The notes under the pieces were generated by a model. It ran no database searches. It was not told where the DNA came from and worked only from the letters and a program-made list of their open reading frames with translations. A stretch of DNA of 64,000 bases, from the NCBI GenBank assembly GCA_001724265.1, contig MEDY01000032.1:1-64000 (forward strand), read 5' to 3'. Shown one piece after another: positions 6,492 through 40,699 of the stretch. The DNA comes from Rhizaria sp. SCN 62-66. Lineage: Eukaryota. How positions within the stretch are numbered: the first letter of the stretch is position 1; each line of letters starts with the position of its first letter. The translations under genes and the position numbers were made by a program.

Positions 6492-9156
6492 TTAGTTATC
6501 TCCCTCGTCGAAATCAAGCGCCTTGGTGGCACTCTTCTTCTTTCCGCGCTGGCCGGGCCGCAGCGCGTCGACATCGACATCGTCGCCGCAGTCGAGATAG
6601 CTTCCAGCGGCGTCGACAGCGGCGGCAGTCGCGGTGTTGACGGTGGCGGCCGCGGGCGAGTCAGTCATGCTGACCCCTCCCTGCGTCCGGGCACCAGACA
6701 TCGTAGCATCAGTGGCCGCGAGTCTGGTGTAAACTCTGTCGGCTCTTGACAGCACGGGCGTCACCGCAGCGCCGAGCGCAGCGCCCGTGCCCAATATCGG
6801 CGTCGGTGGCGTGTTCGGCACAGCCGCAGCGACACGCGTGCGCCTGTCGTCGCTGGCCGGGACTGTGCAGCCGGTGATAAGAGCCAACCACTGTTCCGTG
6901 GTGCCCAGCGCGGCCGAACGCGTCTTGTCGTCGTTCTCCTCGTTCTTGATGCACGCCTTGAGGAATTCCTGCGACCGGTGGTACCCGACGCGTGCGTAGA
7001 TCTCACGCTGGTCGGATTCATCGAGCGCGCCTTCGTAGTTGCGCGGGGTGCCTCCCAGAACGTCAGGCCAGAAGTCGTCGGGTGAGTCGTGCAGGAAGTC
7101 GATCAACAGCCCGGCGGTGAGGAGCGGGAGCGGGCCACACATGAATCGCACGTGGGCAACGAGCGCGGCGGAGCACATGGCCTTCGCGCGGCGGTAGCGG
7201 CGCACGAGCTCATCGCACAGAGCCTTGAGGCCGTCGGTGGAGCAGACGTGCGAACCGAAGTGCCAGTGGCGGGCGCCGTCGAGCATGGCGAAAGAGCGGT
7301 GAGCGCTGTTCTCATGTTTCAGCATCGTGTTGATGCCGAGCGAGGAGTAGAGAGCGGCGGAATCGCCGGTCAACGTCTTCGGAGCGGATCCCTTTGTGGC
7401 GGCAGCGTTGCAAGACGCGGCAGTGTCGGCCGAGGCACTGTCAATATTACCAAACGCTTTGTTCCAGTCAGAGGCAGTGCTGTGCATGTCCTTGGCGGTG
7501 AAGCAGAGAGCACTGTGCTCGGCCGGGTCAATGCAACATTGCACGAAAAGACTGTTGAGGCTCTCGTCAGACACGACACGGAGACAGCGGTAGCCGCACG
7601 CACTCGGCTTGATCATCGCAGTGGGCGTGTGACAGTGTTTGTGACCGTGTCCGTGCGCATGGGCGTGGGCATGCGCGCCGTGGCGTGCCGGGTTGACCGC
7701 GGTCATGGCAATCGCACCGGCGGGCACGGTGGACGTGAACATCACAGGCCGCATGTCGCCAGAGCGAGCACCCGATGGCGCCACAGGCTGCTGCTGTTGC
7801 GCAGCGGCCGTGTTGCTAACGCTCGCGCACGAGACCGCGGTGGCTGTGAAAGCACGGGACACACGTGAGATCTGGAGCACACCCGCCGCACCAGTGCCGG
7901 TTCTGACAGCGTCTCTCGACGCGACCGAGCCGTCATCGACGTCGTCGGTGTCGCTGTCGTTGGCGCCACCGCCGCCAGCCGCGTTTGTGGTGCCGGCCGC
8001 GTACGGCCCGGTCAGAGCAGCGGCGGCGCTGCCGATGTTACTGTTGGCGGTGAGGCTCAGCTCGCGCATGGACGCGATGGGCGTGCTGACAGTGTTGAAC
8101 AAGCCCGTCTTGGCGGCTTGATGCATCGACTGCTGTTGTGCGATCGGGGGAACGGTAGGGACACGCGGATTAAACGTCCTGTCGTTCGCAGCAACGCTAC
8201 TATTCGAGTCATCATGAGCAGGCACCGGCGCGCTGCCGACAGAGAGCAGCGACACACATTGGCGCAGCATACTCGACGACGGAGTCTCCGTGTCGGCCCT
8301 GTTGGCCGCCGCAGCGATCGCAGCAGCTGCGGCGACAGCCGCGCTCGACGCCGCCGCGGCGGACGAGCTCTGCCCAGCGACGTTGGCGTGAGGGTGGCAT
8401 CCAATGGCGACAGCCGCGGCAGCGGCAGCGGCGCCGGCCGGGGTGGCCAGTGCCATGCGACTGACGCCGCCGCCGCTGGATGCAACAGAGGGCGACTGCA
8501 TCGGCATCGCGCCAGACCGCGCAGTGTCGAGGCACGTCGTGTTGAACGAGTCGTTGACGTCCAGCCCGAGCGGCGCCTTGTAGCCCGCGGCGAAAAACGA
8601 CTGGTCGCCGATGACGGCGGTGTTGGCAAACGTGTCGTCCTTGTCCTCGTCCTCGTCGTTGTCATCGCCGCCGTTGCTGCCGCCGGACGCGCGACGCGAG
8701 TTAGCAGAGCCCTTCGGCCTCGCGGCGTTGCTCGCCAGCGCGACAGAGTCCGGGACAGATTCGACGTGGCGGTCGTCATAGTCGGAGTCCGACAAGTCAA
8801 CTGCCGCGCACGACGACCGGCGGCCGCGTACGGCAGCGAACGCGGAGATGTTGCGCCGGCCGTAGGATACGCTGCGACTCGTGTCGCGCACGGTCGCGGC
8901 GGTGGGCGGCCAGATGGTGCCACTACTGGGGACAGTGGTTGCGGTCAACAATGAGGTGGAGGAACCGGCGCCCGCGAACGTGCCCCCGCCCCAGGCGACG
9001 GCCGTAGCCTCGGCGCCCTCAGCGATCGTGTGCAGCGCGAGAGAGCCATGGGCGTCGTCGCCCATGCTATTGCCAGCAGCACCAGTAGCGGCGGCAGCAG
9101 CGGCGACGGCGTTCGCGGAGACAGCGCCGGGAGCAGCGCCGTCCACGGTGACGCCA

Positions 9157-9187
<31 letters not shown>

Positions 9188-12100
9188 GGTCGGCCAAGTC
9201 GGCTTGCACAGTGAGATGCCGCGGCGGCAGCAACGCGGCGTCGTGCCCGTCGGCGGAAAACGCACGACGCGACGAGTACGCCGCCGTCGCCGTGGACCCA
9301 GTGCCCGCCCCCGCGCCAGCGCCGGTGTGTGAGTGCGCAACGCTGTAGCGGATCGAACGCGCCTTGGAGCGGCAGGTGAGGCTACTCTGGCCACCGCTGC
9401 CGCCGGCGCCGCCGGAGCTTGTGACTGCGGTCGAGTGCCTGCGACCGACGGCGCCGTTCTCCGCGTAGCTGCCGTCAGCGATTCCACCGTTGCCGCCGGA
9501 GCCAGAGAGGCAGCACTGCGGGTCCCCTCCGTCGAGGCAGACTCGCGGTGTGGCTGAGGCGTAGCGCACACGGGACTTGTCGCCGCCCATCACTGAGTCA
9601 GCCGAGTCACCCTGCAAACCATGTGCACCGCAGCCGACGGCGGTGGACGTCAGCGGGCCCGAGAAGCTATGTGCGCACTGGTCCACCACGCCGGCCCCGC
9701 CGCCGCCGTGCAGGGCATGGGCGACCGCGACGTCGAAGCTGGCCGCCGAGTGCGGGTCCGCGTACGAGAAGCTCGTCGCGGACCGGCCGGCGGCGTGCGC
9801 CGCGCTGTGCATGTTGGCTGCGACCGCGTGCTTCGAGTCACCCGCGGCGGCGTCAGCGTCGGCGCCGGTGGGCAAGGAGGAGAGCGAGTGCGTCAGGCCC
9901 GGCACGGCGAGTGGGACTTGGGCGTGCGCGTGCGTGCCGGAGATGTTGTGGCTCCCCAGCGCAGGCGCGGCGGCGGCGCCGGCGGTGGCGGCGTGCGACT
10001 GCCCGTAATGCGAGGTGTTGCAGCGGTACTGCGAGGGGATCGCAGACTGCGAGCGCGTCACAAGTGCGGCGTACGTGCACGACTGCGGCGGATTCGACGC
10101 GTTGAGAGGTTTCTCATCGGCTAAACGCGGCCAGTGTTTGTTGAGCAAGCACTTGATGCGCTAGGAGTGCCAGTAGAAGTTGTCGTTACTGAACGTCGCC
10201 GAGTAGAGACACTGAAAGCGCGTGTCGAACATCTCCATGTAGTACTGCGGGGCGCAGAGATGCCGGAACTCGTGGTAGAAAGCGCGGTACCCGCCATGCA
10301 TCACGACGACTTCGGGGAACGACAAGTGTGGGCCTTGGTTGTGCAGCTTGTCAAGCTAGCTGAAGAAGTGGCACGCGCGCGGGCCGCGCAGCCGCGAGTA
10401 CTCGCAGTGAAACACAATCGCGAGCGGGCACTTGACCGTCTGGCGAAGGCCCACCTGACCGGCGGGCACCGCAGGCTACCCCGGCGGCAGGTAACCGGTC
10501 GGCGGCGGACTGTTCTGCACACCGCTGGCGAACGCGTTCGATGTCGCGCCGCCGAGCGCAGAAAACATGCCAGGGGCGCCGGGCGCGGGCGCGGCAGCGG
10601 AGGCCGCGTTGGAGGCCGTGGCGCGGCGCGGGTTAGCGGGCGTCGCGGGATCCCGCACGGCAAGGGAGACGCCGCCCATGGAGAACGCGCTGCCCTGGGG
10701 CAACTGCAGCGAACTACTGCTGTTGTGGTCGCTGCTGCCGCTGTTGTTGTTGCTGTTGTTGCTGTGAGGCGGACACGGGGTGGCAAACACGCCGGCGTTG
10801 ACTCTGTTGGGATTACTGGGACTGCTATGGACGGAGCCAGCAGCAGCAGGGCCGGTCACGGTAACGGAGGTCGCAGCGCCAGCCGCAGCGGCGTTGGCGC
10901 TCTGCTGCTGCTGCTGCTTCTCCTGGTCACACTTGAGCGGCATCAGCGCGGGGTCAGTGACGTATGCGTAGTGCTGGCGGAGGCACCTGTAAAGAGCGCA
11001 GAGGGCTTCGGGCTTGTTAATGTTAATTGCGGAGACAAGATGCCCGTTGTCAAATTCGTACAGAAAGCGCATGTCAACAATCAGGAACTTGCCAATATAC
11101 TTGTCGTATTTTCCGCAAATAAGCTCCGCAACGGTGTCCTTGGTCACACGCTGCACGTTATATACCGTCTTATTCTTTTCTGCGGGGTCCACCGGCGGAT
11201 AGTGGCGAGGGAGAACCCGTGTATAACCGTTGCCATCCGCGCGTGGCCCGAAGACAAAGACGCCGTCTTGACCGATGCCGTCGAGCGGGCGACACGCGCG
11301 CTCCGCCATGGGCACCGTCTAGGACGGCACTTGCGGGACGTTGTTGCTCTGCACGCTTTGGATGGGCGCGGGCACCGGCGCGGGGGGCACGTGCGGGGCG
11401 CCGTTCGCGGTCCCCAGTAGCGGGGGAATCATCGTTCCACTGTTGGCAGGAAGAGAACAACTATTGTTGTTGTTGTTGTTGTTGTTGTTCATGGTGGGAT
11501 ACCCGGTGCCAGCGGACGAACGTGCAAAGAACGATTTGTGTCCGGGCACACCGTCGATGGTGCCCGCAAACGGCAGGCCTCCATTATGCCCGAGACTGAC
11601 GCCGTTGCCGGCCGCAAGCGCGGCCGCAGCGGCAAGCACGCCGTTGGTTGGCGAGTTCGTCGGCGTTGTGTCGTTGCACATGTTCGCGCTCACAGACAGC
11701 GGTAGCACGCGCGCCACGGCCGGGAGGCTCCGAGTGCTGTCGCTGACGAGCGGCGCGGGCGCGGGCGCGCCGGCGGAGGCGCAAGCTGCAGCCGCCGCTG
11801 CTGCCATGTTGGCGGCATTTGAGTAGACGGGGGCCTGCAAAGGCATGACGTATGACAGCGCCCGTCCTGAAGCGGATGGCGCCTTGGCAGGCGTCACCAT
11901 GCACAGCCCCGCCTTCGTGGAAGACGGCGACGCACCGTTCGACCCTGTTGCGGAGGCCATGGGGCTCGCTGAATGCCGGCGTGACACCTCGAACAACTGG
12001 CAACTATTCGCACCCGAAGCAGCGGCGGCGGCGGCGGCTGCGACGGCGGCGGCGCTGGCGGGGGTACAGGCGCCGCTGGGGACGTTGCGCGTGAACGCCG

Positions 12101-13514
12101 AGCCGATGCCACCGACAGCGCGACCGAACGCGGGGCCTAGCGACGGGGACGACGGAGCGTTGACGAAGACATTGCGACGTGCGAGGGCGCCGGAGCTGTT
12201 AAGCGTCTCGACGTCGGTGTCGGTACGCGGGTGGCCGGCGCCCATTGTCGCGGGGGCGTCGTAGGACGCATGCTTGTTGATGCGAAACTCAACGCCAACA
12301 GCAGCAGCCGCATTCGCAGCCGTGGTGCCAGCGTTGACGCCGTGGCTACTCCAGGCGCTGGTGATGCCCCCGGGGTTGTGTGTCGAATGATTAAGCTTCG
12401 ACCCAGCGCCGCGTTGGTCGTCACACTCGTCTTCATCGTCGTCGTTGTTGTTGTCGTCCTCGTAGTCGTCATCGTCGTTGTCGTTGACGGGGTAGATGCT
12501 CGCAGTATCTTCAGTCACCGAATAGTCGCCGTACGTGCCGCCGCCGGGCGGGCCGGTCATTGCGCTTGAATCGCCGCCGTCAAAGTTGAAACTCGCGAGA
12601 CCGCCGGCGCCGGCAGTAGCAGGTCGCTGCATGACACATGCGTTGTTGTTGATGTTGTAGTTGTCCAGAGAGTCGCCAGCGACGATTACACCCCCGACAC
12701 CCGCGGTTGTCGTGACGATGGCCGCGCTGGACGACAACTGCGCGGGCGTGTCAGCTGCCCCGGCCGAGCCAGCCAGCGAGAGCGTTCTGACCGCTGTGTA
12801 ATTCGTCGTCGGGGCCAGCTGAGACCCGAGCGACGGCGGCTGTGACGGCGCGATGGACTGTGAGTGCGAGTGGGTGTCCGACAGAGTCAACGAAGCGGGG
12901 TTCGCGTTCCGTGCTGCTGTTGCGAGGCCGCCGTTGTCGTTGGAGCTGAGTGCTAGAGACACAAACGGTGTCGGAGACACGTACCCGCTGGCAAATCTGG
13001 CCCCACCCACACCGCTGCCACTGATGTTGTTGTTGGCTTTGCTCATGAAGCCGCCACCGTAGACGGTCGTCGCAGAGGGCGTGATCGCAACCCGTGACGA
13101 GAGAGTCGTCTTGACGCCGGTCTGAGCACCGCCGGGGCCCTCACTCGCCGCATCACTATTGGAGACGTGGCACAAGCACGCGTGCGCGGCATAGCCCGAG
13201 AGACAGCCGGCGCCCGTCATCGCCGCACCGGTGGCGGACGAGGATGAAGAGGGCGACGCGGAAGAAAGAGGGCGCTTGAGAGCACGTGCGGAGCCGGTGA
13301 CAGAGCTGCTGCCCGTGGTCGGCGGAAGCGTCGTCGTTGCGAGACCGCTGTCGCCGCCGAGCTGAAAGTCACCGGGAGAGCCCGCGCCGACAACGCCGCT
13401 GTTTCGGTGTTGCGCACGGCAGAAGGCGTCGGACTGCGGAGAGGTGAACTCGGTTCGACTGCGCAGTGGTGCAGCAGGGTCTCGATCCCCCGGGTCGCGG
13501 CCCGAATGCGACAT
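6492..13514 (-). CDS. CDC25: Cdc25-type dual-specificity phosphatase (rhodanese fold), about 2340 aa, read through four in-frame TAG codons
   Basis: ORFs 11319-13514, 10476-11315 and 6492-10148 share one frame and are separated only by TAG at 11319-21, 10476-78, 10356-58 and 10161-63. Motifs: FLIVDMRFLYEFDNGHLVSAINI, active site VFHCEYSRLRGP (HCx5R at 10386-10409, absent from the ORF track) and LSFPEVVVMHGGYRAFY...LCAPQYYMEM. Ends in TAA. Confidence 0.88.
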
Positions 13515-15150
13515 CGTGGTTCACACAGCGAGTCAAAAACGGAGGCGCAAGAAAAAAGACTGACGGGGGTAGTCCGCGGCCGAAGCGTAGGAAGAACCGA
13601 GTTTGTTCCGGGGCGGGACGGCAGAGCCGAGCGTTGCTAGAGGAGAGTGTCAGTCACGACTGGGACTGTGTCAGGAGAGGGAAAAAGAAGGGTAGTGGTT
13701 GATAACCACTACAAAACAGAAGAAAACACAATATTACAATATTATGCACAATGAACGCGCAAAAGAATGCAAATGTGGCACCATGGGTGTGAGAAAGAGT
13801 ATGGTAAAGTGGAATAATAAGTGTAAGTGAGCCACCCCTTAAGCATGGTATCGAGGTAGGCGGATATTGAGACTTTGGCAGCAATAACCGCGCATAAAGC
13901 AATAAATCTGCATATTAAAAGAACATAACTCAGTTTTAACAAGTAGTCAGTCTTGACTAATGTAACGAATTATCTAACCGGAAAAGACCTGGAAAAAACC
14001 CTCACCAGGCTCGTGTCGATCTGTAATGAGATTTTTCCCCAAGCCATTTCAGCACCAGTCCAAAGGCATAGACAGGGATACTTTGTAGGGACATGCTAAA
14101 CAGTCGCACATCCACCATAGCAAAACCGCATGCGCAGATGACACAATCCCGGCGTGATGCACGGGTCGGGAAATTCGGGGATGCCCCCCCTTGGGTGGGG
14201 TGCTTACCGGCTAACTGTTAGTCGTGATAGAAAGTGGTCGCGATGTCTTCGTAGAAGGATTACTTCGCTGCTGAGTGGAGAGAGCGACGAGGAGTCGGCT
14301 GCTATCTCCGTAGTCAACTTTAACAGCTCCAAGCAGGCGCTTGCCGTCGACAAATGAATGGTATATCCCGGTATGATATGTTCCTGTGAGGCTAGATGTA
14401 TATGGTATTTGTGATATTGCTTGCGCGCATATCCTACCCGGTCTATGCTGCTCTCGCAGATTCGTCTCCAGAGGGACGTCGCTTGCTCCTCCTCTCACAT
14501 GTTATTTGCAAACCACGGCGGTGTATATAATTTCAGAGTTCACTATAGTTTGGATATGGTGTTTTTCATGTGTGTACATCTCATGGCGTGCGCTGTGCTT
14601 CTCCCAGATTGATGTCCTTCTGTACTAACGCTTCATGGAAGTGCGATGCTTTTCACTGATCCACGCGCGTCTCGTCAACGCACGCAACAATGGATTCATA
14701 CGCGCACCTGTCAAGCGTGGCAGGATCCTCAACGACATGATATTGTTCTGCGGTTTGCTTTTTTAAGTTAAATTTCACTCACGGCTTCTTCTAATCTCGT
14801 CTACCCTGTTCTCGGTGCCCTTTCTCCGGTCACCTCCTTCGTAGCCCTCGCTTCCCTCGCAGCGCACGTTCAGGTCCCCAACGCTCTACAATACTCACTG
14901 AACGTTGAGCAGGCGTCTATTTCTTCCTTGCCCGCAATCCTGTAACCGGTAGTTTTTCGTGTGCACTTACTTCGGTCTAAGGTTCTTGTCTTTTGCTGTA
15001 TCGACAACAAAGACAACTAGTCTCAACACACTCACACACACACACGCAGACGCGCACTTAACTCTGCGGCGCACAGACACGACACGCACACCGTGACTTG
15101 AGCTCAGTCATCTTTGTTTTTGTGAACGCACAGCAACCACAGCTTTCAGA

Positions 15151-16034
15151 ATGTCTAACGCGAAGGACAAAGTCAAAGTTGTTTTGCTCGGCAAGTACTC
15201 CGTACGTTATCATTAAAGCAAAGCTTTGTCTTTTTACATTTAGATAACTTCCTCGATCTAAGCCCACGCCTCTGGTTTATAATGTATGCTGTTCGATTCT
15301 TACTCACTCTTCATTGTTGTCCCCTTTGTATTCTGCTTTTGTTCGTTCATGAAATCATCGCACTGCGTGTTCAGGCCGGCAAAACGTGTCTGATCGACCG
15401 CCTCGTTCACGAGCGCTTCCTGGGCCCCACGTCCTCTACCGTCGGCGCCGCCTTTAACGCCTTCGACGTCCCTCTCGACCCTCGCGGTGCCAAGAAGCTC
15501 ACCCTAGGCATCTGGGACACCGCGGGCTCCGACCGGTTCGAGTCCCTCACGAAGCTCTACTACAAGGACGCCGCCGCGGCGCTTGTGTGCTACGACCTCA
15601 CCGACGCGGACAGCTTCGAGCGCGCCAAAGCCTGGGTGCAGCGTGTGACGGAGACCGAGGCCGCATGCCTCATCGTGATCATTGGGACGAAGCTCGACCT
15701 AGTCGACGCTGGCGGCTCCCCGCGTGGCGTTCCTCTTTCACAGGCGCGCGCTTACGCAGCGAGCATCAACGCGCAGTACTTCGAGTGCTCGGCCAAGCTC
15801 GAGGATCAACTTCCCGGTGGCTGCCGCATTGGCGAGCCGTTCGAGTGGGTGGCGCGCGCCGTCGCCGCCAAGAAGGACGCCAAGTCAACCGCGGGCGCGG
15901 GCGGCGCTGCCGGCGGCGCCGGGACCGGGGGCGCCGGCGCGGGCGCGCAGGGCGGGGCTGCGGGGCAGCGCGCTGGGGCAACGGCGGTGCGGCTTGACAG
16001 CGCGGGCGAGCGCTCGCGCGGGCCGTGCTGCTGA
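15151..16034 (+). CDS. RAB24: Rab24-like small GTPase; exons 15151-15201 and 15375-16034; 236 aa
   Basis: Spliced P-loop VKVVLLGKYS/AGKT. TVGAAF, LGIWDTAGSDRF (Ser in place of Gln) and GTKLDL (Thr in place of Asn) are Rab24 signatures. ECSAK and a C-terminal CC prenylation site are present. Ends in TGA. Confidence 0.85.
15202..15374 (+). other. Spliceosomal intron of Rab24 (173 nt)
   Basis: GTACGT...TTCAG. Removal restores the GxxxxGKT P-loop. Confidence 0.9.
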
Positions 16035-19300: not shown

Positions 19301-20180
19301 CGTGTGCAGCAGCAGCAGCAGCAGCGCTAGCGTCGGTGCCAGAGCCAGGAGCATTGCTGGAAACGGTTGGGTCAGCGGTAGCTTGTGCGCTTGACGGCCC
19401 GCTCACAGATTCGCGAGCTGTCAAACCCTGCTTGCTGACTGAAGCAGAGCTAGTGCTGTTGTTTCCGACTGTGGCATCGTCGTTCGAGCCGCCACTGTCG
19501 CCAATGTGGGGTGCAGTTGCGCTCGCCCCGGCAGTTGCACCAGAATTGCCACTGGGAGCGGTTGCGCTGTTGCCTTCTGCGGCCGCTGACTTGGCTGCAT
19601 CAGCTGCAGAGTCTGCGGCCGCAATAGTCCCGGTCGAGGAGACGCCAGAGGGCACGGGCATGAGAGGCCCCATGGACGGGAAATGATGACCGTGTGCGCC
19701 AGAGGGCCAAAAGGCGGGCCCGTACGGAGGAACCGGGTGACTGTGACCGTGGGTGTGGCTGAGACCAGCAGCAGCAACAGCAGCAGCCGCGGCGGCGGCC
19801 GCAGCAGCGGCAGCGGCGGCGCCGGTGGGATTAGGATAAGGCAGCCCCGCCCCGGCCGCGGCTGCGGTGCCAGACGCGGCGGGCGGCGGCGGCAGCGGCA
19901 GGCTGTGGCTTTGACCGGTCTGGTGAGCGTGTAACTGAGAGTGTGAGAGCTGTGGCGGCTGCAAGTGACCGTGGGTGAGATGACTGTGTGCATGCGCTTG
20001 CTGCAGTGCCATCGGCGCGTTCTGATGACCGTGAGCAGCAGCAGCGGCAGCAGCGGTCGCAGCAGCAGCAGTGGCATTAGAGTGAACATGAGACGCCAGT
20101 GGATGCGATGCCAGTGTTGCACCAATACTAGCCTGGGCAGAAAGCGCTTGGTCGAGCTCAAGCTGTTGTTGTTGTTGTTG

Positions 20181-20219
<39 letters not shown>

Positions 20220-21227: not shown

Positions 21228-21258
<31 letters not shown>

Positions 21259-22139: not shown

Positions 22140-23736
22140 CGCTGGCGGGTGGTATCTGGGGAAACCTGGAAGTCTGTGTGAGTGGTAAGAGTGACTGGCT
22201 GGAGGGGCAGATAGAGGGCAGGAAACAACAGAACAGAGGAGCATGTTTGAAACGTCGTAATTAGACGGGATAACACGTTAAGAAATATACAAGCGTGACG
22301 AGGTAATTATAAACAGTTACACGAACGCTCTAAGTCGGAAACAAGTTGATTCACGATTGCCTCGAGGCCCATTTTGAAATTAGAGAGAGCTTCGTTTGTG
22401 TCCCAACCAAATTAGAGTCCGCGCTGCGTCGTTGTTGGGGTTTTGGGGGCGCGGTTCTGAAAAAAAGCTCTGAAATTCAAAATCGAAACAGTCATCCTTG
22501 CGTATCTTATCGTCATAAAACCTGCGATGAGCTTGCACAGCACTTACCCGAGAAAGCTTGGAAATGCGATTTAAATATATGCGTACCTGTTTTTATCATT
22601 GTTTAGAGTCAAAGCGTTGCTTTCTCAAGTCGCCATCAAACCGGACGAAGCATCATTCGCGCGAGCATCACTTGTTGAGTGGACACTCTTCATTGAGCCA
22701 GTCTGCGATATAAAATCATGGCGTCATAGTGAGACAACAGTATGTCGTGTGGATCGATAAGACGATGCTCCTTTGTCACAGCTAATGTGTACTCATTTTC
22801 AACAGCCTTTAGTACGTTGCAATGACTAATAACTTCATCAACTGACTCTGCACACATCTCGTGATCGACAGCGCCATACGCAATATATTGTGAGGTAAAC
22901 CAATACATCTACAAGCATAACGTACTTCTATCAACTCTTAAGGCGTGAAAAATGCCATATGATGTTGAAATTCGTATCAAAGTCTGTTATGTCCATGAAC
23001 AGTGCTATCCTATTCATCGCAAACGTTGTGTAATTATGGCGTTGTATGCATGTTAATGGTTGCGAATGCATAGCATAATAAAATGTATCACATAGAATAC
23101 TCGTTTGAATGTCATGCCTAAAGACTGTACAGATGTATGCATAGGAAGACGGTGAAAGGCTTATAAATATCACATGACTATGTGCCGCGTCACTGGTGTG
23201 GTGAGAGCTCGTGGGTCTGCACTCTTTCTCTGCGTGGTCAAAAACGATTTGTGCATGATATCAAGTGATCGTCAAATCGTCTGCCGATGCGATTATTACA
23301 CGTACAATGCTCTTGTTGTTCCATTTCAAAGATTTTTTTGTCTGTACAAAGTCGGAATCATGTCTGAATTGTGTTAATGCTCTCACTCTACTTCGCAATG
23401 GTCGGCGTGGACAGCAACTGATCTCCTAGTCGGCCCTGGATACTGTCTAAGGTCATTCACATGTCAATATACCTCCTAACCAGTCGAACACGTGTTTTAC
23501 TTTTTGCGATCACTGTATTTTATCTCCCTAAGCATTCGCTCTGGTGAGTGTCAACACTCTTTTTCTCCGGTCTTGTTGTCAGTCATAACACCCATCCTCT
23601 CTCCTTGTCCCTCGCGGGACTCTCTGTCAAGCCACATCAGCCGGTTTCCGGCGCCCTCCGCCAAGCATATTGCGGCCCAACGGTACCTTTTTTCTTAATT
23701 GCGCGCCTTTGTACGCCGCTCTAAGCGCGTCCTAAC

Positions 23737-26700: not shown

Positions 26701-29700
26701 CTCGCCGGCGTCTTCCACCAGCACACCGACGGCGACGGCCGCGGTGGCGCAGGCGGGCCCGCTATCGCCCGCTGCGGGCGCTGCGAGACGCGCGCACTTG
26801 TCGGGGCCCGATACGATGCCCGGCGTCGAGCGCAGGGATGCTGAAGGTGGTGGCCAATCAAAGGGGCCCGACGTGGCGTCCTCGCAACTCACGTTTGTGC
26901 AGCAGCTGTTCGAGCAGCAGCAAGTCCAGCAGCAACAGCAGCTGTTTGGTGTCAGATCGCTGCAGACCCCGACGGGGCCTGTGACGGTCAGAGTCCCCCC
27001 TGTCAATTCTGCGTTGATGGCCTTCACCGACCAGTCCAACAACATGCAGACGCATGCTGAGGCGCAACCGCCCTCGCCACAACAACTACAGAGTCATCAG
27101 GCTGCGTATGCGAACGGGTATGCGCCCGCTTTCAGTGGCGACCTGTCCGTGCCCAAGGCCGTCGCCCTGATGCAGCAGTTGACGCAACTGCTCAGTGCGA
27201 TGCAGCAGCGGCAGCGCGAGCTCTCTCAGGGCGGTGCCGCCATCAGCAACAGCAACGGCGCAACTGGTGCGAGCAGCAAGCATAACAACGGCAACGGCGG
27301 ACGCAACAGCGTGAGCAGCCAGAGCCAGATGCGTCACAGCGGCAGCGGTAACGCCAACGCCAACGGCAACGGACACAGTCGCCAGACCCAGCAGCAGGGC
27401 TCTGGGCCGGCGTCGGGCGGCTCTCAGGCCACTCACGGTCAGTCTTTCGCCGCTACTGCTAACGGCGGCGGTTGGAACGTGAGCCAACTGGGCCGGCGCT
27501 CGCCCACAGTCACCACAGGCGGGACGCCGCTGTCGGTGCCTGACGACCACGTGATTGACACGGTCATGGTGAACGGCGAGCCAGTGTCGTTTATTCGCCG
27601 GGTGACGCCGCGTGACGCGCCCTTCACGCCCACCTCTGCGACGGGCAACGGCAATGCGATGCAGACCGGCAACGGCAGCCTTTACGACAACATCGACAAC
27701 ACTAACAACAATAACCGCGGCAACAGCCCGAACGACGGGATGATGGGCGCCAACGTCGTCCCTGTCGTTGGCCCCGGCGCCGGCGGGCCCCCTGGGGTCG
27801 GGTCTCTGCATGTCAACGTCAACGCCAGCAGTGTTGGCAGCAGCGGAAGAAGTATTGCCGCCGTCAGTGTCGGCAGTGGGTTCAATGAAAGCGGCCCTGT
27901 CGTCGGTGGCACTGGGAGTATCACAGTCAGTGGCGGCAGTCAGCAGCTGATGTTGACGCCGACGCAGTTCACGCCAGCGCTCACGATCACTTCCTCCGTG
28001 ATTACAAATGGCACGGCCAGCGGCACTGGTGCTACGCCGCCGGACGCGACTGGGTCTTACAGCAGCCCCGGCACTTCCGGTGGCACGTCGGTCCCCGTGC
28101 AAAGCGCCGCCGCCGCGAGTGGCGGCCAGTGGGGCGCGCAACACACAGGCGCGACTCCGCGGCCGCCGCCCGGGCTCCCCGGAGGCGGCGCGCCGCGGCC
28201 GCTCAACGTGCGCCCCCCGCCGGTCCCCGCGGCCGCCGGCGGCGGAAACGGCTCCGGCTCGACGCCTCCACTGGCGCCCGCAGGACCCTTGTCGCCCACA
28301 TCGCTCAACAGGACATCCATCGCGTCTCCTATGGCAAACAACAACGTCAACAGTCACACCGGCTTGCACGCGAACGTGAACATCAACAACCAGAGCAACC
28401 TCAGCAACGGTGCCACCACCGCCGTTGCGATGGCTGCGACCGCGGGCAGTGTGTCGACGTCGCAGGGCTCGTTCCGCTCCTCTCTGCGCGCCACAGGCCG
28501 CTCGGCTACCGGCGGCTCCGGGCTACCCGCGCTCAGCGCAACCGGCTCTTCGCACAGCATCGACGGGAGCTCGAGCTCCGGTGCCGGCGGTGTCGGCGGC
28601 GCGCCGCAGGACGCTGCCGTGCTGAACGCGGCGACGGCGCACGCGCTGATCCAGGTCATGGGCGGCGCGGCACTGACGCCGGAGCTGCTGAGCCAGCTGG
28701 CATGGCTTGTTGAGACCCTGGCGCCCAGCGGTCAAGCGCAGGGGCAGACACAGCAAACACTCGCGTTGCAACAGATTGCGGGCAACCCGGTTTCGGTTGT
28801 GAGCTCCAACGGCAGCAGCTCCGCAGCGGGGCTGACCGCTGGTGCGACCAACGCCGGCGGAAATCTCCAGTTGTTCCCATCGCAGTCGTATTCGTCATCG
28901 TATAGCGCCAGCGCGTCGTCCGCGCTTGGCAACGCCGCGGCCGCGCTCGCTGCACATGCCGCCGGCTCAAGCTCTGGCGCTGGCACAGGCTCTGGCACTG
29001 GACCAGCTCATGGCACTGGCGCTGGGCCAGGCTCCGGTTCGGGCTCCGGCTCGGGCTTCGGTGCTGGAAGTGCGGCCTCGTTTGTCGACGTTTTAGCTAT
29101 GGGTAGAGGACCGTTGACACACAACCGCAGCGCTTCCATCAGCAACATTAGCCTCGGTGGCTACCAACAACAACAACAGCAACATCAGCAACAGTTTGCT
29201 CCGGGGCAGCCACAGCACCAACAGAGACCGCACGGCGGTCCCGCGTCTGTGACCGGCCCGAGCCTCAACACGAGCCCAAACGTGCCCGCAAGCACGATCA
29301 GCGGCCCGCGCGCCGCGGTCGGCGTCGCAGACACTCCCACCCCGCCGTCCGCGGGCGGCGCTTCCGCCGGGGCGGCGCTGGAGCATATGCTTTCGCAGGG
29401 CGACCAGCAGTGGGCGGGGCGCGCGATCAGCCCGCCGCAGGCGCTGCAGCTGCAGCTGCCCGCCACCCTGTCTAGTTACGCCACGGGCTTGCGCGTCACG
29501 CCCCCAAAGTCACCGTCGCAGCCTCAGTCTCAGCCGCAGCAGCAGTTGTCGCAGACGCAGGTGCTGAACTCGGCGCTCCTAGCGCTGCAGCAGCAAATCC
29601 GACAAAATGCGGATGCGATTCAGACTGCATTGGCGCAGGCTGCGATGCAAAGCAACGCTCCCAGTTCGATGACGCTGCAGCAGCAGTACCAGCATTAGCA

Positions 29701-32700
29701 GGAGTATCTCGCCTTTCAGCAGCAGCAGCAGCAGATGCAGCAGATGATGACAATGCAGCTGCCGCAACAGCCGCGGCATATCGCAACGCGGTCGCCACAG
29801 TCGTCGCCGCCCGCGACGGACTCCGACACGAGCGTCGTGTCCTCGCGACCCGGCTTCACGGCGAGCGCGGTGATCTCCGTGCCGCCACTCAACAGCTCGC
29901 TCAGCGGCGGCAACGATGCCTCAGCACAGGCCCGCACTGTCCCGTCCACGCTGCGCACGGTCGCCGCAGCCGTGCCCAGCGGCGGCGCCCACTCGGGCGC
30001 GGGTCCCGGCGTCGGCCGCGCGACCTCACTGCAGACGGCGGCGACGACAATGCAGCAAACCGGTGGCGGGTTGAAGGCGCCGCCTGCGTTCGTGTTTGAC
30101 GTGCCACCGGTCACCCCCGCGGCCCAGCCGCTGTACGGCGCCCCGGGGACTTCCTACGGTCAGCCCTATGGCAACACGACGCAGCCGCAGATGCAGTCGC
30201 AGCCGGTCAACGGTTGGTACACCGCGCCGCCCATGGCTGCTATCACGCCGCAGCAGCAGTACGTGCCGACGATGCAGCCCGCGAACGCGAGCGGACAGTT
30301 AATGATTACGCTCCCGGGCACGCCTTCGCACGCACAAGGTTTCCCGCTGCCGTCGCCACTGAGCACCACTCCCAACCCCATGATGCAGCAGCAGTACATG
30401 GGGCAGCAGCAGCTGCAACAGCCGCAGCTGCCGATGCAGCAGCCACCGCAGCCCCAGCAGCAGTCGCCTGCGCCCATGAGCCCCAGTGCGCGCCTCGCGC
30501 CGGCGATGTCGATGGCGGAGGCGCAACTGCGGCAGCAGCTGATGTTCGTCAAGCAGCAGCAACAGCAGCTTTTGCTTGCGCACGCCCTCAACCTCAACGC
30601 TGGTCAGCAACAGGTGACGATGCAGCCGCCGGCGGGGCTGATGCTCACGCACGTCAACAGCGTCGGTCCCGGCGGCGCCATAGGCTCGCTTCTGAGTCCG
30701 ACGGCGGGCGGCCTCGCCGTCGCCGACCCGCCGCCTGTGTGGCCGTACCCTGGCACAATGCCCGCCACCGGTGCAGCGCAGGGCACACGCTCACAGTTGA
30801 GCGCGGCTAACGACGCCAGCGCGTTCGCGAACCCCGCAATGCAGACGGTCAGCTTCTCGACCGAAGGCAGTCTCGCGGCATCTGCGATCGAGGAGCAGCT
30901 GCGCGCTGTGGCCGCACTCGCAGTGCCCGTTCTGTCGCGCACCAGCACCGGGGTCACCGGGATGGGTCAGGGCAACACGCAGTCTGACTACACGAACACC
31001 GCTGGGCTCACGCCTGTGTATTCGCAACAGCAGCAACAGCAGCAACAGCAGCTGATGGTTCTGAGTCCGACGAACCTTGGAGTCACGGGCCAGCAGTCAC
31101 TTGGACCGCACCACATGATGTTGCATCATATGCCGCACGCGCAGCAGCACTACACGCAACCGCAACTGCAGCAACTGTCGCTGCAACAGCAGATGCAGCA
31201 GCAGGTTGGTGGCGTGTACTACCCCGCCGGCGCGAGCGTCACGCCGCGCGCAGTGCCCATGCAGTATGGCGGCGACGGCTCCGCGACCGTCGGCATCGTG
31301 CCGCCGCCGTCGCCGGGCGCCGGGCTTGCGCTGAGCTACGCGCCGTCGACCATCTCGCTGCTTGCGCCGACGCAGCTTGCGCCGACGCAGCTTGCGCCGC
31401 TGCAGATGGCCTCGCCGGCGGCGCTGCAAGATGTCGTGCTGCCGTTTCCGTCGCCCGCGGCCCTGACCATGGCCAGCAACGGCCCCGTGACGGCACAAGT
31501 CGTGCCAGTCATGTCTCCGCATGTTGCGTTCGGCCCCGGCGCCGCCGTCGTCGGCCCCGGTGGCAGCGGCAGCATCAGCGGCGCGACCGGCAGTTGCAGC
31601 GACGCTGACGACGTCGACGACACGTTGCTGGCGGGCCGGTACCGTCTGCTTAGCGCGCTGGGCCGCGGGTCCTACGGGCTGGTGACGCGCGCGCTCGACC
31701 TGTACACGGGCCGCATCTGCGTCATCAAGTCTATCAAGCGACCAGTGCTCGGTCTGCGCTCCGGTAGCGTGCTCTGGGAGCGGCTCGCGCGCGCGCACCA
31801 CATCGTGCGCGGCCACTTGGGCACCGCTGCGGCCGCCGCGGTCGCACCAGGACAGCCCGTCGTCGCGCTCCGCTCGCTGCGCGCGCTGATGCTGCAGGCG
31901 TGGCTCGTTCGCGACACGTCCGCGAACGGCGCTCTCGACAGCGCCCGCGGCAACGGCGAGGCGCGCTGCTCCCCCACCCCTGGCGGTGACGGCAACGGCG
32001 CGGGCGGCGCCGAAAACTCTCTTTCGCGAAGCCGCGGCGTAGGCTCCGGTTCAAGCGACGCGTCATCGTGCGCGGCGCTGCGCGTGTGGCGCGACCTCGC
32101 GCAGGGCGCCGCCGCGGGCCTTAGCGCCGGTGGCATGACAGCGCCCAACTCGTGGTTCAGCGAGAGTGAGATCCTGCAGTGCCTCGGCCGCGCGCCGCTG
32201 CCGCTTTCCGTGGGCGCGCGCGCTGACGAGACCGCTGCCGGTGACGCGACGGGCGCAGTGCTGTGGCCCGTCGGCGCGCACCCCGGTGTCGTGAAGCTGC
32301 TGGACGTGGTCGAGACGTGCCACTGCCGCACGCGCTACGCAGAGGCCGTCGCCGCGCGCTCCGCCGCGCTCGCCGCCGCCACGAACACCGCGGTCGACGC
32401 CAGCGAGCGGGTGAGCGCGGTGGCCAAGATCCTGGCGCTACCAGTGACCGTGGACGGACACCTGGCGCGCTGCGAGCTTGGGCTCGGCGCCGGGCTTGCG
32501 GACACGCCCTCGGACGCCGACACGAGCCACACGACCACGCCTCTCGGCTCGCCCACCGCCAGTGCTGGCGCGGCCGCCAATGCCGGCGCGGGCGTGATTG
32601 CCGGCGGCTGGGGCGCGGGGCTGGGCGCCGGCGGGCTCGGTGCCGGCCGCGTCGTCGGCAACAACGTCACGCACCTGGTGCTCGAGTACCTCCCCGGCGG

Positions 32701-35700
32701 CCCCGTCGTGCCCGCCACGACTGACGCGACCTTCACCGGCGGCGCCGACCCGTGGACGGAGCACTGGGGCCGCGTGGAGAGCTACATGCGCCGCATGGGC
32801 ACGGTGGTGGCTTACTACCGCCGTCGCCGGCTGCGCAAAGAGCGGCAGCTGCTCGAGGGCAACCCGTTCGAGTACAGTGGCGCCGATGACGGCCGCGCCA
32901 GCCCCAGCACTATGACACAGCCTGCGGCCGAGCGCCACTACCCGTGGTGCTCGATGGACCCCGTCTCTGTCGCGCTCAGCAACGACGCGCAACAGCAACA
33001 GCAACAACAGCAACAACAGCAACAGTCCGGAGACGGCACCAATGCCGCTCCTTCGAGTGCGTCGCCCGCAGGTCTGCCGATGCACTTGGTCTGGCTCTTT
33101 GCTCGCGACCTCGTGTCATCGCTTGACTTCATCCACCGCCGCGGTTTTGCACACCGCGACGTCAAGCCCGAGAACCTGCTCCTGGACTGGGGCGACACCG
33201 CGCCAGACCTCTACGCCGACGAAGCCTGTGGCCACAACGACGCTCCACTTGCCTGCGAGTCGCATGAGCTGACGCCCGAGCAGCGCGCACACGTGTGCCG
33301 CTCCTGCCTCTGGCGCCGGCCGCGCTGCGTGCTCGCCGACTTCGGTGCCGCGTGTGCAGTGCGGCAGTCGTCGTCGGGCCGCCAGCGCAGGCTGGGCGAG
33401 GCCGCCGCACTGTATGCGTCGCGTGTGCGCGCGATCACGCTGCACACGCGCGCGGTCGAGGCGCGCGTGTGGCGGCGCAACGTGGGGCTCACGCGCGCGT
33501 CGCAGAACGCATCGGTAGCGCTTGCGCATGGGGCCGACCCTGTCGCGGCCGAGGCGCAGCGCCGCCAGCAGCGCGCGCAACGTCGCGTGCAGGTGCGTGC
33601 GGTGGTCGTCGAGCGCAAGCGGCGCTGTCAGGAGGCCGCGACGCGGCTGCGGCTGACGCGCGAGCGGCAGCGCGAGCGCGACCGCGCGCGCAGGGGCGCG
33701 GGCCAGCGCCAGACGCGCGCGGGCGCAGTCGCCTCCGCCGTCGCGGTGGGCATGCTCGCGGCCACCGCGGCGGTCGACGTGGACCGCGTGGACACACTCT
33801 CGCCGCGCACCCGCGGCGTGGTCGGCGCCGCGGCCAGCCCCGCACTGGCGACTGCGACGCCGCCTCTTGTTGTGGCAACCGCGTCGCTGGGGCCCGCACC
33901 CCTCGCGCGCGAGCGCAAGTCTTTTATCGCGGCCGAGGGCGCCGCCGGCTTGAATACCGGCGTCGTGACTGTCGGCGTCGTGACTCCCCGGCGGCGCAAG
34001 CAGGCGCGTGCGTTCGACTCGCGCTCGCGCAACCCGTCACGGTCGCAGATGGAGAAAGTGCTCAACATCACGGGTACCCTGCCCTTCATGCCGCCCGAGG
34101 TGTTGCGCGGCGGCGACGCGGCGTCCGAGGCCGGCGACGGCGACGATGACGACGCTGCGGCGCTCACCGCGACGCGCGCCGGCGCGCGCCGGCCCCCCGC
34201 GCGGCCCAGCGCCGTCAGCCGCCCCGGTGCGGCGCACGGCGGCGCGGCGTCGTCGCGTGTGAGCCGCGCGCTGAGCACGGCGATGAGCCGCATTACTGCC
34301 AGCAAGGGCGTTGTGTGGCGTCGCGCGGACGCCTGGGCCGCCGGGCTCACTATCCACTCGATGCTGCACGGCAAGCTGCCCTGGCGCTCGCTGCAGCCCG
34401 TGCGCAACGGCGGCGCCACGCAGTCGGTGGACGACGACTTTGACGACGAAGAGGACGACGACGCCAACGGCTTCGGCAACGGTAGCCGCCGCGGTCTGTG
34501 CTCCCCCACCGGTGTGCACCCGGCCGCCAACAGCAGGCTCATCTCCGCCGCGACGAGCAGCCATAGCACGGCCAGCGGCGGCAGCGGTGTGAGCGGCGGC
34601 AGTGGGCTCAGCGGCGTCAGTGCCGGTAGCGGCGCGAGCAGCGGCGCCGCCAGCGCGGTAATCGCGGCAACGATGCTATCTCCCGGCACGCCCCCCGTGG
34701 GTCGAAGAGGCATCAACTCACGCCCGCTGCGCGCGCCGCACCCGCCCGCGCTGGCGCCACCCGCGTCGCAACCCCCGCGGCCGAGCCCGCGTCCGCCCAC
34801 CTCCGGCTCCTCCGCCGCCGCCGCCGCCGCGGGCGCGCTGTCCCCGTCGCCGCCCGCGCCCCCCGCGCAGCCAGCGCCGCCCGCGACGGGCGTGGCGGCG
34901 CTGCTTGCCGAGGTGTGCGACGCGACGGGCCCCGTGCGCGTGGCGCAGCGCCAGCGGCAGCGGCAGAGCGCGGCGTGGTGCGCGATGCTGCCGCGCTTCG
35001 CCAGCCTCACCAAGATGGACAGCAACAACGGCGGCAGCAGCGGTGCCGGTGCGGCGTGTGGTAGCAACAGCAACAACAACAAGTCCGCTGCTGCTGCTGC
35101 TGTCGCCAACGGGGCGCCGTGTTCTTCGTCGTCGTCATCGTCGTCCGCGGCTGCGGGCGCCAACAGCTGCGGCAACGGGTCTTGCTGTGCCGGCGCTGGC
35201 GCTGACTTGAACAGCACCCCCGCCAACGGTGACGCTGCCCCCGGCGCCGACGCGAACGCTGGCTCCGGCGCGAGCGCGAGCGCCAACGCGGGCGCGAACG
35301 CAGGCATCCCGCCGCGCGTGCGCGTGCCGACCGGTCTGCTCGAGCTCCTCGACGGGCTGCTCGCGCGGTCACCGCGCCAGCGCCTGTCGCTGCGCGGTGC
35401 AGGGCTTGACCGCTGGCTGACGCTCAACGGCCAGTGGCCGCTGCACGTGGAGCCCTCGCAGCGCGCCGTGGCTTGGCTGGCGGAGACCATGGACGGCCAC
35501 TGGTGGGGGCTCGGCGACGGCTGGGAGTTCGACCTCGGCGGCGACTACGACGACAGCGACAACGACGACGGCGACAATGACGACGTCGGCGCCGGCGCGA
35601 ACCACAACCGCCGCGCTGCGCGCGCCACGGCCCGCGGCGCGGGCGGCTGCGGCTGCGGCGACGCCTCGACTGCGGACGCCGGGTACGTCTCGAACAGTGA

Positions 35701-35985
35701 CGATAGCGAATGCGAGGTCGCGGCCTGCGTCGCGAGCGCCGACCTGGACACCGACTGGCTCAGCTCGAACGACGTCGACGCCGACGCCGACGCCGCGGAG
35801 CCCACGATTGCGCGCACGCGCGCCGAGACCGAGGGCAATGCGTCTCTGCGCTTGCGTGTGGGTGGCGAGCCCAGCGCCGCCACAACGGGGGCACTCGTGC
35901 CCGGCAAGGTCTCGCGCGCCGCGACAGTCGTCGTCACGGGCGGGCCGGCCACCGGCGAGACGCTGAGCCCGCGCCTCCACCGGTT

Positions 35986-36021
<36 letters not shown>

Positions 36022-36439
36022 GGCTGGGGGTGGCGCGGCCGGCGTGCGAGGCGCGCGGCCGCTGCCGGACAGCGCGAACTCGAGCTCGGGAGTGGCCACC
36101 GCGGGTGGCGCCGCTGCGGGACGGGGCCTGAGAGCCAGCGGCGGCAGCGGCGGGCCCGTGCCAGGCCACGGGCTCGCGCCCGGCGTAGGGCTGGGTCTGC
36201 GCGCTGTGTCCGCGGCCGCAGGCGGGAACTGGGACCGCGATAACCTAAGCAGCAGCGCTGAAGAGAGCGGTTGGGAGAGTGACGAAGGCTTCGGCGACTT
36301 GAACGAGGGCGTTGAAGAGGAGGAGCCCGAGGAAGACGGTGACGGCGACGGCGAGGCCGACGGGGCTGCTGCAAGCGACGACGAACGCGACGGCAGTGAC
36401 TGGAGCGAAGAGCACCAAAAGAGTGACCAGGACCTCTGA
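23737..36439 (+). CDS. Giant Ser/Thr protein kinase, CaMKK/SnAK-like, with predicted N-myristoylation and palmitoylation; exons 23737-23884 and 24015-36439; about 4190 aa; in-frame TAG at 29696-29698
   Basis: Starts MGACVSK. ORFs 24029-29698 and 29735-36439 are in frame and joined by TAG CAG GAG TAT CTC GCC TTT (CAG)6. Kinase motifs: LGRGSYGLV, VIKSI, HPGVVKLLDVV, LVLEYLPGGPV, HRDVKPENLL, LADFG, GTLPFMPPE, DAWAAG, GKLPW. Ends TGA TAA. Confidence 0.8.
23885..24014 (+). other. Spliceosomal intron of the kinase gene (130 nt)
   Basis: GTACGG...CATAG, pyrimidine-rich. Removal puts the MGACVSK exon in frame with the long ORF. Confidence 0.8.

Positions 36440-40631: not shown

Positions 40632-40699
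<68 letters not shown>

Follow-up and report, generated by a model that had tools for sequence, protein, structure and literature searches.

In-frame UAG codons, probably translated as sense, in a GC-rich eukaryotic contig of wastewater and bioreactor metagenomes

The 64-kb stretch of DNA analyzed here (the window) raises the question of how the eukaryote that carries it decodes UAG. According to the initial annotation, six in-frame TAG triplets in three genes are read as sense codons, with glutamine as the probable residue, while UAA and UGA remain stops. Our analysis indicates that UAG is probably translated as sense and that UAA and UGA terminate, a reading supported by six codons in one 64-kb window. 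The organism is an uncultured, intron-poor, GC-rich eukaryote with UAA as its preferred stop.

Results

The ten open reading frames (ORFs) counted, 16,154 codons in all, contain six internal TAGs and neither TAA nor TGA. Re-reading of the ORFs confirmed all six TAGs at the coordinates originally assigned to them, and the peptide contexts claimed for them agree with the sequence. Four are located on the minus strand in a Cdc25-like gene (6492..13520, minus strand), an ORF of 2342 codons with its first ATG at residue 3 and a terminal TAA at 6492-6494. They are found at 11319..11321 (residue 734, in the context VPS-TAG-TVPM), at 10476..10478 (residue 1015, in the low-complexity insert that divides the Cdc25 domain in two), at 10356..10358 (residue 1055, in the catalytic half, 10 residues past the HCX5R motif), and at 10161..10163 (residue 1120, at the C-terminal edge of the domain, in the context YWHS-TAG-RIK). 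The fifth TAG (21102..21104, minus strand) is residue 392 of a zinc-knuckle, low-complexity gene (16365..22277, minus strand), where it reads PLPA-TAG-QRR; this ORF ends with TAA followed by TAG. The sixth (29696..29698, plus strand) is residue 1905 of a giant protein-kinase gene (23984..36439, plus strand) and is embedded in a CAG-rich tract, QQQYQH-TAG-QEYLAFQQQQQQ. The kinase ORF ends with TGA followed by TAA, and since its first 146 codons contain no ATG, the start of the gene is probably upstream of the ORF. All three TAG-bearing genes are long and consist largely of low-complexity sequence, and four of the six TAGs belong to a single one of them; the housekeeping genes for the glutathione reductase (GR), Brix, CHD, and Rab proteins carry none.

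The frame remains open far beyond the last TAG of each gene, for 1222 codons in the Cdc25-like ORF, 1578 in the zinc-knuckle ORF, and 2246 in the kinase ORF. Because TAA and TGA together occur off-frame about once per 55 to 68 codons (239 and 294 per 16,154), frames that stay open beyond every TAG are not explained by chance (P < 1e-7, our own arithmetic from the off-frame stop rate). No frameshift was found across the 2342, 1970, and 4151 codons of the three ORFs (~8,460 codons), and GC3, calculated in the same frame over 100 codons on either side, is 0.65 to 0.85 for all six TAGs (0.72 and 0.78 flanking the TAG at 21102). The earlier claim that no TAA or TGA interrupts any gene is valid for the GR, Brix, SNF2/helicase, Rab, and Cdc25 domains, all of which are uninterrupted by these codons, but it is partly circular for the ORFs as such, since TAA and TGA themselves delimit them. 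In a codon-usage scan for any stop with coding-like flanks, all six TAGs ranked 17th or better out of 408; equally high scores are reached in antisense frames of GC-rich genes, and the scan is not discriminating.

We counted ten gene ends in the window rather than the 11 initially proposed, given that the CHD ORF and the PHD ORF belong to a single gene with a 157-nt GT..AG intron between them and that the TAA closing the CHD ORF is intronic. Seven genes end with TAA, three with TGA, and, as originally stated, none with TAG, although ten genes are a small sample. Two of these ends are supported by homology. The alignment of the GR-like gene extends to the penultimate residue of solved GR chains (449 of 450 and 477 of 478) and ends one residue short of the TAA at 3429..3431 (plus strand). 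The Rab5/Rab21-like GTPase terminates at the TGA at 16032..16034 (plus strand), directly after a C-terminal ...GPCC, the CC of which we take to be the Rab prenylation end. Together with the tally of ends, the two genes bear out the proposal that UAA and UGA remain stops.

An intronic location of the TAGs was also considered and rejected. Their surroundings are coding and GC-rich (GC of 0.58 to 0.82 within ±150 nt), whereas the two introns found, of 157 and 173 nt, both starting with GTACG, are AT-rich (GC of 0.36 and 0.39).

A phmmer search of a protein library returned 2278 proteins matching the Cdc25-like gene at E ≤ 0.001, and one HSP to P0043 covers residues 788-1102 of the ORF. The N-terminal half of the Cdc25/rhodanese domain is encoded at 10998..11156 (minus strand), where query residues 55-107 align to CDC25B/C, and the catalytic half, with the pattern HCEYSRLRGP ... 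GGY..F ... C.P..Y..M, at 10164..10424 (minus strand). Human CDC25A/B/C chains match both halves (E values from 1e-20 to 2e-22), which are separated by about 190 low-complexity residues; as this insert splits the domain, the Pfam Rhodanese profile scores below its threshold (18.1 versus 22.2 bits). The HCX5R site (HCEYSRLRG) and the near-invariant residues 3′ of the TAGs are intact. According to a conservation table of 148 homologues, the residues kept here upstream of the TAG at 10356 are H (144/147), C, E, and S (147/147 each), R (147/148), and P (148/148), and those kept downstream are D, P, G, and Y (148/148 each), F (147/148), C (143/144), and M (145/145). Because near-invariant residues are kept on both sides, the domain is equally constrained 3′ and 5′ of the TAGs. 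The alignment to human CDC25 is gap-free across the TAG at 10356, which is therefore not in an intron. By its fold, its HCX5R site, and its conserved residues, the gene with four TAGs qualifies as a putative Cdc25 dual-specificity phosphatase, and the comparison with homologues shows that UAG would have to be read through for a working enzyme to be produced. A gene caller relying on the standard code chopped the gene at the TAGs into P0005, P0012, and P0006; P0005, a public gene call of 277 aa, ends exactly at the TAG at 10476.

The residue could be assessed at two of the TAGs, only one of which, at 10356, has a well-populated aligned column. This column contains N32, K30, Q22, E22, S16, R13, A4, G3, D2, T1, L1, and M1 (n = 147), with Glu in human CDC25B/C. 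Variable and polar, it fits Gln, Glu, Lys, or Asn and disfavors Leu, Tyr, and Trp. At the TAG at 10161, where only eight homologues align, the column holds two R, two E, and one each of N, T, K, and Q, with no Leu. Two further TAGs adjoin Gln codons in Q-rich sequence. The assignment of UAG to Gln by the initial annotation is hence compatible with a polar Cdc25 position, but the same column accommodates Glu, Lys, and Asn, so Gln is not singled out; Q is as frequent there as E and less frequent than N and K. A naive-Bayes guess from the neighboring residues was uninformative, with M, L, H, and C on top and Q best at two sites only. If UAG is indeed translated, Gln is most likely the residue on prior grounds, and the polar character of the sole informative column argues against Leu; Glu would be unlikely, Lys or any residue other than these and Leu still less likely, and Leu very improbable. 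With Gln, the code would correspond to NCBI translation table 15, the UAG=Gln code. That code is cited for phages in the source excerpts.

TAG is also the easiest stop to reach from the codon usage of the window, which makes TAG exclusivity alone weak evidence. With this usage, TAG would account for about two thirds of nonsense mutations arising at random, and the probability that all six would be TAG is 0.076 when all one-step neighbors are considered and 0.099 for transitions only. The base following the sense TAGs is A at 11319 and C at the other five sites, while the ten terminators are followed by G, A, A, T, T, T, G, G, T, and G. The difference in C (5/6 versus 0/10; Fisher p = 0.0014, binomial p = 0.0047) was noticed post hoc and concerns six sites.

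Sequencing runs place the organism of the contig in wastewater and bioreactor metagenomes, in studies from different years (runs with a small share of the contig were left out of this habitat reading). Four of the six TAGs (11319, 10476, 10356, and 29696) are unchanged in contigs from other sequencing studies. There are 0 differences in the contigs of run X3, from a different study, which span 10223-11449 and 28213-29800, or in those of run X5, from a third one, which span 10203-10712 and 11123-11442. A contig of the polyA-RNA library X9 (29142-29727) retains the TAG at 29696; it extends only 29 nt beyond the codon and possibly originates from contaminating DNA. Depth in X9 is zero over some intergenic bins and is not usable as evidence of transcription. 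In the four runs compared, which were Logan contigs and not raw reads, none of the TAGs has a listed variant, and no listed contig piece is shown to cover 10161 and 21102.

Searches for the decoding machinery within the 64-kb window found no tRNA gene, no Rfam family at gathering score, and no eRF1 or rRNA gene. An exhaustive phmmer search for close relatives of the Cdc25-like gene returned only the window's own fragments and distant Cdc25 homologues with at most 44% identity, and word-indexed searches with the Cdc25 domain and the C-terminal fragment (lengths 256-816 and 669-2132 aa) returned self only. Metagenome contigs scanned for a close relative of the Cdc25 catalytic half and of the neighboring Rab, used as a synteny anchor, yielded nothing close (0 of 74 stretches in one scan and two loci, at 41% and 25% identity and left aside, in the other), and two scans of prokaryote genome contigs for mis-binned eukaryotic DNA gave nothing relevant. 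As no orthologue of the TAG-bearing genes was found, no TAG could be matched to a sense codon of a relative; no internal paralogue spanning a TAG was found in the window either. The CHD gene has relatives at 90, 75, and 77% identity, whose ORFs show no break attributable to TAG. A quick single-gene CHD tree weakly suggests a rhizarian affiliation: the rows with which the contig groups include no named members other than Rhizaria (SH-aLRT 98; no sainouroid named). Literature searches on code changes in genomes of Rhogostoma or sainouroids returned nothing beyond PMC5304391. The Brix protein matched the ESM Atlas at the family level only, with no taxonomic information.

Discussion

The most probable account of these genes is that UAG is translated. 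It would be decoded by a dedicated tRNA with a CUA anticodon, which could read UAG without reading UAA, and eRF1 would recognize UAG poorly or not at all; the inserted residue would most likely be Gln. Since UAG is rare (6 in 16,154 codons) and C follows five of the six but none of the ten terminators, the release factor may still compete at UAG, in which case the reassignment may be young or incomplete.

The same two features can be turned into an argument for an ambiguous UAG, one that still terminates some genes and is decoded only in a favorable context, before C, whether by a scarce suppressor tRNA or by near-cognate tRNAs. The codon is indeed absent from the conserved housekeeping genes here, and context-dependent stop/sense codes have been reported elsewhere, e.g., in karyorelict ciliates and Blastocrithidia, in the excerpts consulted. 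We nevertheless regard such ambiguity as unlikely: TAG is found at none of the ten gene ends, the statistic on the following C is post hoc on six sites, and a single Cdc25 mRNA would need four read-throughs, so that leaky decoding would leave almost no full-length protein. Under the standard code, the three genes would instead be pseudogenes or tolerated nonsense alleles, to which the accumulation of four TAGs in one gene, the ease with which random nonsense yields TAG, and the length and low complexity of all three genes lend themselves. Decay of this kind is difficult to reconcile with ~8,460 codons devoid of frameshift, TAA, or TGA, with a maintained GC3, with Cdc25 catalytic and near-invariant residues kept on both sides of the TAGs, and with the recurrence of the same TAGs, where covered, in contigs of different studies and years. 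Moreover, three of ten neighboring genes killed by TAG only, together with the lack of any TAG end, are jointly improbable, although the first point alone has a P of ~0.08 to 0.1. Altogether, we consider this explanation improbable.

UAG could also encode Leu, as in the sainouroid rhizarian exLh, if the contig came from that described lineage or a close relative. The grouping of the CHD helicase with Rhizaria would agree with this, and sainouroids (Rosculus and Guttulinopsis) are common in wastewater plants according to extracts of PMC8827150. Genes of exLh likewise end with UAA far more often than with UGA (56 and 15) and, in extracts of PMC5304391, never with UAG. However, Leu accounts for 1 of 147 residues at the TAG at 10356, against Q22, E22, K30, and N32, and for none of eight at 10161. 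UAG is also frequent in exLh, with 384 occurrences in 71 transcripts (PMC5304391, in extract), as opposed to six in ten much longer genes here, and the CHD tree is weak and without a named sainouroid; we find a Leu assignment very improbable. Least of all do we expect the TAGs to be assembly or sequencing errors or mRNA-edited sites. The source is a metagenomic contig and the comparison runs are all contigs themselves, yet four sites show 0 differences across studies, variants are listed at none of the six, and the RNA-library contig over 29696 retains the TAG.

Sense decoding of UAG, with UAA and UGA as stops, thus remains our preferred reading. More tentatively, and less likely than not, the window may represent an independent, so far undescribed UAG reassignment, possibly in a rhizarian wastewater protist, at an early or incomplete stage in which UAG is confined to long and poorly constrained genes and accepted mostly at sites where the next base, C, makes the release factor less effective. 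Another case in which UAG and UAA are split, in a very different genome (GC3 of about 0.8 and long low-complexity proteins), would provide an independent data point on stop-codon capture. Should the low UAG frequency and the C bias at +4 extend genome-wide, they would mark a stage where tRNA and release factor still compete, and, if the early-stage reading is true, a natural intermediate in this process. In practical terms, standard-code calls split such genes in public protein collections, as with the three fragments of the Cdc25-like gene, so the wastewater contigs of this lineage are mis-annotated.

Known systems offer several points of comparison. Trypanosomatid genes are organized in polycistrons, unlike those of the window, whose strands alternate. 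The Blastocrithidia-type code (UAR=Glu, UGA=Trp, with UAA also a stop) is, as excerpted, alike in having a stop read as sense and UAA as the preferred terminator; it differs in that no internal TAA or TGA is present here and TGA ends three of ten genes. A long, multi-gene, GC-rich contig with introns such as those found here is unlike ciliate macronuclear DNA. Phyllopharyngean ciliates share the UAG-only change and UAA as the preferred stop (PMC11687900, in extract), with Gln as the residue in Hartmannula and Leu in TARA phyllopharyngeans, but differ from the multi-gene GC-rich contig described here, of at least 64 kb (up to ~121 kb) and with introns of 157-173 nt.

Codes in which UAG alone is reassigned and UAA is the principal stop have been described, in the extracts available, for Iotanema and the rhizarian exLh (PMC5304391) and for phyllopharyngean ciliates (PMC11687900). 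The list of uncoupled cases in the initial annotation, limited to the first two, is out of date, as several phyllopharyngean ciliates have been added (PMC11687900), and nuclear codes that give UAG and UAA different meanings are rare, with about half a dozen lineages named in these sources (PMC5304391 and PMC11687900). Iotanema spirale (Fornicata; UAG=Gln, UAA and UGA stops; PMC5304391, in extract) is similar in its UAG-only change and scarce UAG, and would share the same translation table if the residue here is Gln. It is a different kind of organism, whereas the GC-rich window has long low-complexity proteins and a CHD gene that gives no indication of a metamonad. Rhizaria sp. exLh (Sainouroidea; UAG=Leu) resembles the window in its UAG-only change and in the gene ends described above, and may belong to the same supergroup, as the CHD tree weakly suggests; its UAG codons are frequent and occupy conserved Leu positions in the transcripts reported (PMC5304391, in extract), whereas UAG is rare here and its informative position is polar.

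Results

The window is made up of GC-rich blocks (0.6-0.76) with AT-richer spacers (0.41-0.49) between them. The blocks correspond to long ORFs, alternating between the strands, whose products are eukaryotic proteins, most of them swollen by low complexity rich in Ala, Gln and Ser. They comprise a glutathione reductase (GR)-like flavoenzyme (1227-3431, plus strand, ending in TAA), a Cdc25-like phosphatase (6492-13520, minus strand, 2342 codons), a Rab5/Rab21-like GTPase (15151-16034, plus strand, with a 17-codon first exon, ending in TGA), a zinc-knuckle protein (16365-22277, minus strand, 1970 codons), a giant protein kinase (23984-36439, plus strand, 4151 codons), an alpha/beta hydrolase (38466-43064, plus strand, 1532 aa), a Brix protein and a CHD-type SNF2 helicase with a PHD tail (minus strand). 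Long low-complexity inserts also enlarge conserved enzymes, i.e., the GR-like protein (734 aa versus 450-480 in solved chains), the hydrolase and the Cdc25 domain (9921-11318, minus strand). The first 146 codons of the kinase ORF (23984-24425, plus strand) lack an ATG yet are coding-like, and the true start probably lies on an upstream exon or elsewhere. Within the 64-kb window, no tRNA gene was found and no Rfam family reached its gathering score.

On re-reading of the sequence, in-frame TAGs occurred exactly at the positions and in the peptide contexts described in the initial annotation, four in the Cdc25-like gene (11319, 10476, 10356 and 10161, minus strand) and one each in the zinc-knuckle (21102, minus strand) and kinase (29696, plus strand) genes. 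With TAG left unread, these three genes are indeed unbroken, without a frameshift in about 8,460 codons, and TAG is, as had been claimed, the only internal stop in ten ORFs totaling 16,154 codons (6 TAG, 0 TAA, 0 TGA). The frames remain open for 1222, 1578 and 2246 codons past the last TAG of each gene; since off-frame TAA and TGA together occur once per 55-68 codons, we calculate a probability below 1e-7 for such continuation by chance. GC3 (GC at third codon positions) in the TAG-bearing frame is 0.65-0.85 over 100 codons on either side of all six TAGs. As a sense codon, UAG would have a frequency of 0.37 per 1000 codons, and the housekeeping genes of the window (GR, Brix, CHD and Rab) are without it.

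The organism has spliceosomal introns. One, at 58490-58646 (minus strand; 157 nt, GTACGC...TTTCGCAG, GT..AG, GC 0.36, phase 0), separates the CHD and PHD parts of the helicase gene, while in three public relatives (P0155-P0157; identity 90, 75 and 77% over the helicase region) the CHD part continues into the PHD part as a single ORF without the 157-nt segment. The TAA at 58602, which closes the CHD ORF, is thus intronic, and the 11 gene ends first proposed are therefore reduced to 10 genes. The other intron (15202-15374, plus strand; 173 nt, GTACGT...GTTCAG, GC 0.39) interrupts the GxxxxGKT P-loop of the Rab gene (LLGKYS|AGKT); the first five bases of both introns are GTACG. The possibility that the TAGs themselves lie in introns was rejected, as their surroundings are GC-rich (0.58-0.82) and coding, whereas the introns are AT-rich and filled with stops.

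The absence of TAG from gene ends withstood this correction, in a sample that is small (n=10; 7 TAA, 3 TGA, 0 TAG). UAA still terminates, given that the GR alignment ends at the last-but-one residue of solved GR chains, one before the TAA, and so does UGA, which follows the Rab C terminus ...GPCC. TAA is preferred (7/10) despite a GC3 of about 0.8, and two genes carry tandem stops, TAA TAG at 16362-16367 (minus strand) and TGA TAA at 36437-36442 (plus strand).

An exhaustive phmmer search with a 466-residue segment spanning three of the TAGs matched 2278 proteins at E<=0.001. Solved chains of human CDC25A, B and C match at E 1e-20 to 2e-22, aligning to both halves of the domain, the N-terminal one at query 55-107 and the catalytic one at query 299-385. 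TAG 10476 lies in the low-complexity insert of about 190 residues that splits these halves, TAG 10161 at the domain's C-terminal edge, and TAG 10356 lies 10 residues past the HCX5R motif, where the alignment to CDC25B and CDC25C is free of gaps. The active site HCEYSRLRGP is intact, and all near-invariant residues downstream of TAG 10356 are kept (D148/148, P148/148, G148/148, Y148/148, F147/148, C143/144 and M145/145 in aligned homologues). The standard code breaks the domain: a public gene caller gave products of 277, 46 and 1218 aa (P0005, P0012 and P0006). Judging from this alignment, the TAGs in the Cdc25 domain would have to be translated. Public protein collections hold the gene only as these three separate pieces, cut at TAGs, one of which begins at a non-ATG codon; this points to eukaryotic DNA having been annotated in prokaryote style with the standard code. 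No orthologue of the TAG-bearing genes was found in protein collections or metagenome contigs.

Contigs from other public sequencing runs carried the sequence unchanged, with 0 differences over 10223-11449 and 28213-29800 in a run of another study (X3), over 10203-10712 and 11123-11442 in one of a third study (X5), and over 29142-29727 in a polyA RNA library (X9), which may contain DNA. All comparisons were made with contigs, and none of the four runs compared had a variant listed at a TAG, the listed pieces not being shown to cover 10161 and 21102. The stretch 9900-11500 was present in wastewater and bioreactor runs, five entries having at least half of the sampled words. Near-identical sequences came from several studies dated 2015-2025 and labelled bioreactor, wastewater or activated sludge, and the organism seems to recur in systems of this kind.

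Of the six TAGs, 10356 alone aligns with a well-filled column (147 rows: N32, K30, Q22, E22, S16, R13, A4, G3, D2, T1, L1, M1), a variable polar position, with Glu in human CDC25B and CDC25C and without Tyr or Trp; the column at TAG 10161 has 8 rows (R2, E2, N, T, K, Q). The former column fits Gln, Glu, Lys or Asn and weighs about 20 to 1 against Leu. CAG directly follows TAGs 21102 and 29696, the latter within a CAG-rich tract, which fits CAG-to-TAG transitions and proves nothing. Since Gln is the commonest result of UAG reassignment in eukaryotes, we favor it with moderate confidence; Glu is possible though unlikely, a residue not named here or Lys doubtful, and Leu highly improbable.

The base after the six sense TAGs is A, C, C, C, C, C (C in 5/6), and after the ten terminators G, A, A, T, T, T, G, G, T, G (C in 0/10); this bias, noticed post hoc at six sites, gives a Fisher p of 0.0014 and a binomial p of 0.0047 against a 25% background. 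In eukaryotes, termination is weakest where C follows the stop. Together with the rarity of UAG and its absence from housekeeping genes, the bias suggests that a release factor may still compete at UAG.

Discussion

We consider it likely that UAG is decoded as sense, because the lack of frameshifts, the conserved catalytic residues past the TAGs, the involvement of three genes, the independent recurrence and the lack of TAG terminators hold jointly. A small share of this confidence belongs to an ambiguous, context-dependent form of sense decoding. Exclusivity for TAG is weak evidence by itself, as 65-68% of random one-step nonsense mutations under the codon usage of the window yield TAG; decayed genes would show six of six with P = 0.076-0.099. 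That the TAG-bearing genes are pseudogenes is nonetheless improbable, their frames being free of frameshifts over that length and catalytic residues being conserved beyond the TAGs. Assembly artefact or editing is more improbable still, considering that the same TAGs recur in independent contigs with no variant listed.

The affinity of the organism bears on the comparison with known codes. In a quick, single-gene CHD helicase tree of 55 rows picked from the 120 hits listed (named plus best unnamed), the window and its three relatives fell within a 22-row clade (SH-aLRT 98), the only named rows of which were two labelled chlorarachniophyte, one label being cut short at 'Gym', which we take to be Gymnochlora; oomycetes and a labyrinthulid formed the sister group. 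This weakly hints that the organism may belong to Rhizaria or SAR. The hint matters because Rhizaria sp. exLh, with UAG=Leu, is a sainouroid according to passages of PMC5304391, and sainouroids are described as common in wastewater plants in passages of PMC8827150.

The same passages of PMC5304391 describe a reassignment of UAG alone, UAA being the principal stop, in Iotanema spirale (Gln) and exLh (Leu), and the abstract of PMC11687900 describes UAG-only changes in phyllopharyngean ciliates, to Leu in three taxa and to Gln in two. In the literature listings, abstracts and passages covered, no such code was described for a wastewater protist or a GC-rich non-ciliate one. The polar column and the frequency of UAG, far higher in exLh (384 in 71 transcripts, PMC5304391) than in the window, argue against a code shared with exLh. 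The window shows UAG in frame within conserved sequence but at none of its gene ends, where UAA and UGA terminate, and probably represents a further UAG-only code of a known type, in a GC-rich wastewater eukaryote.
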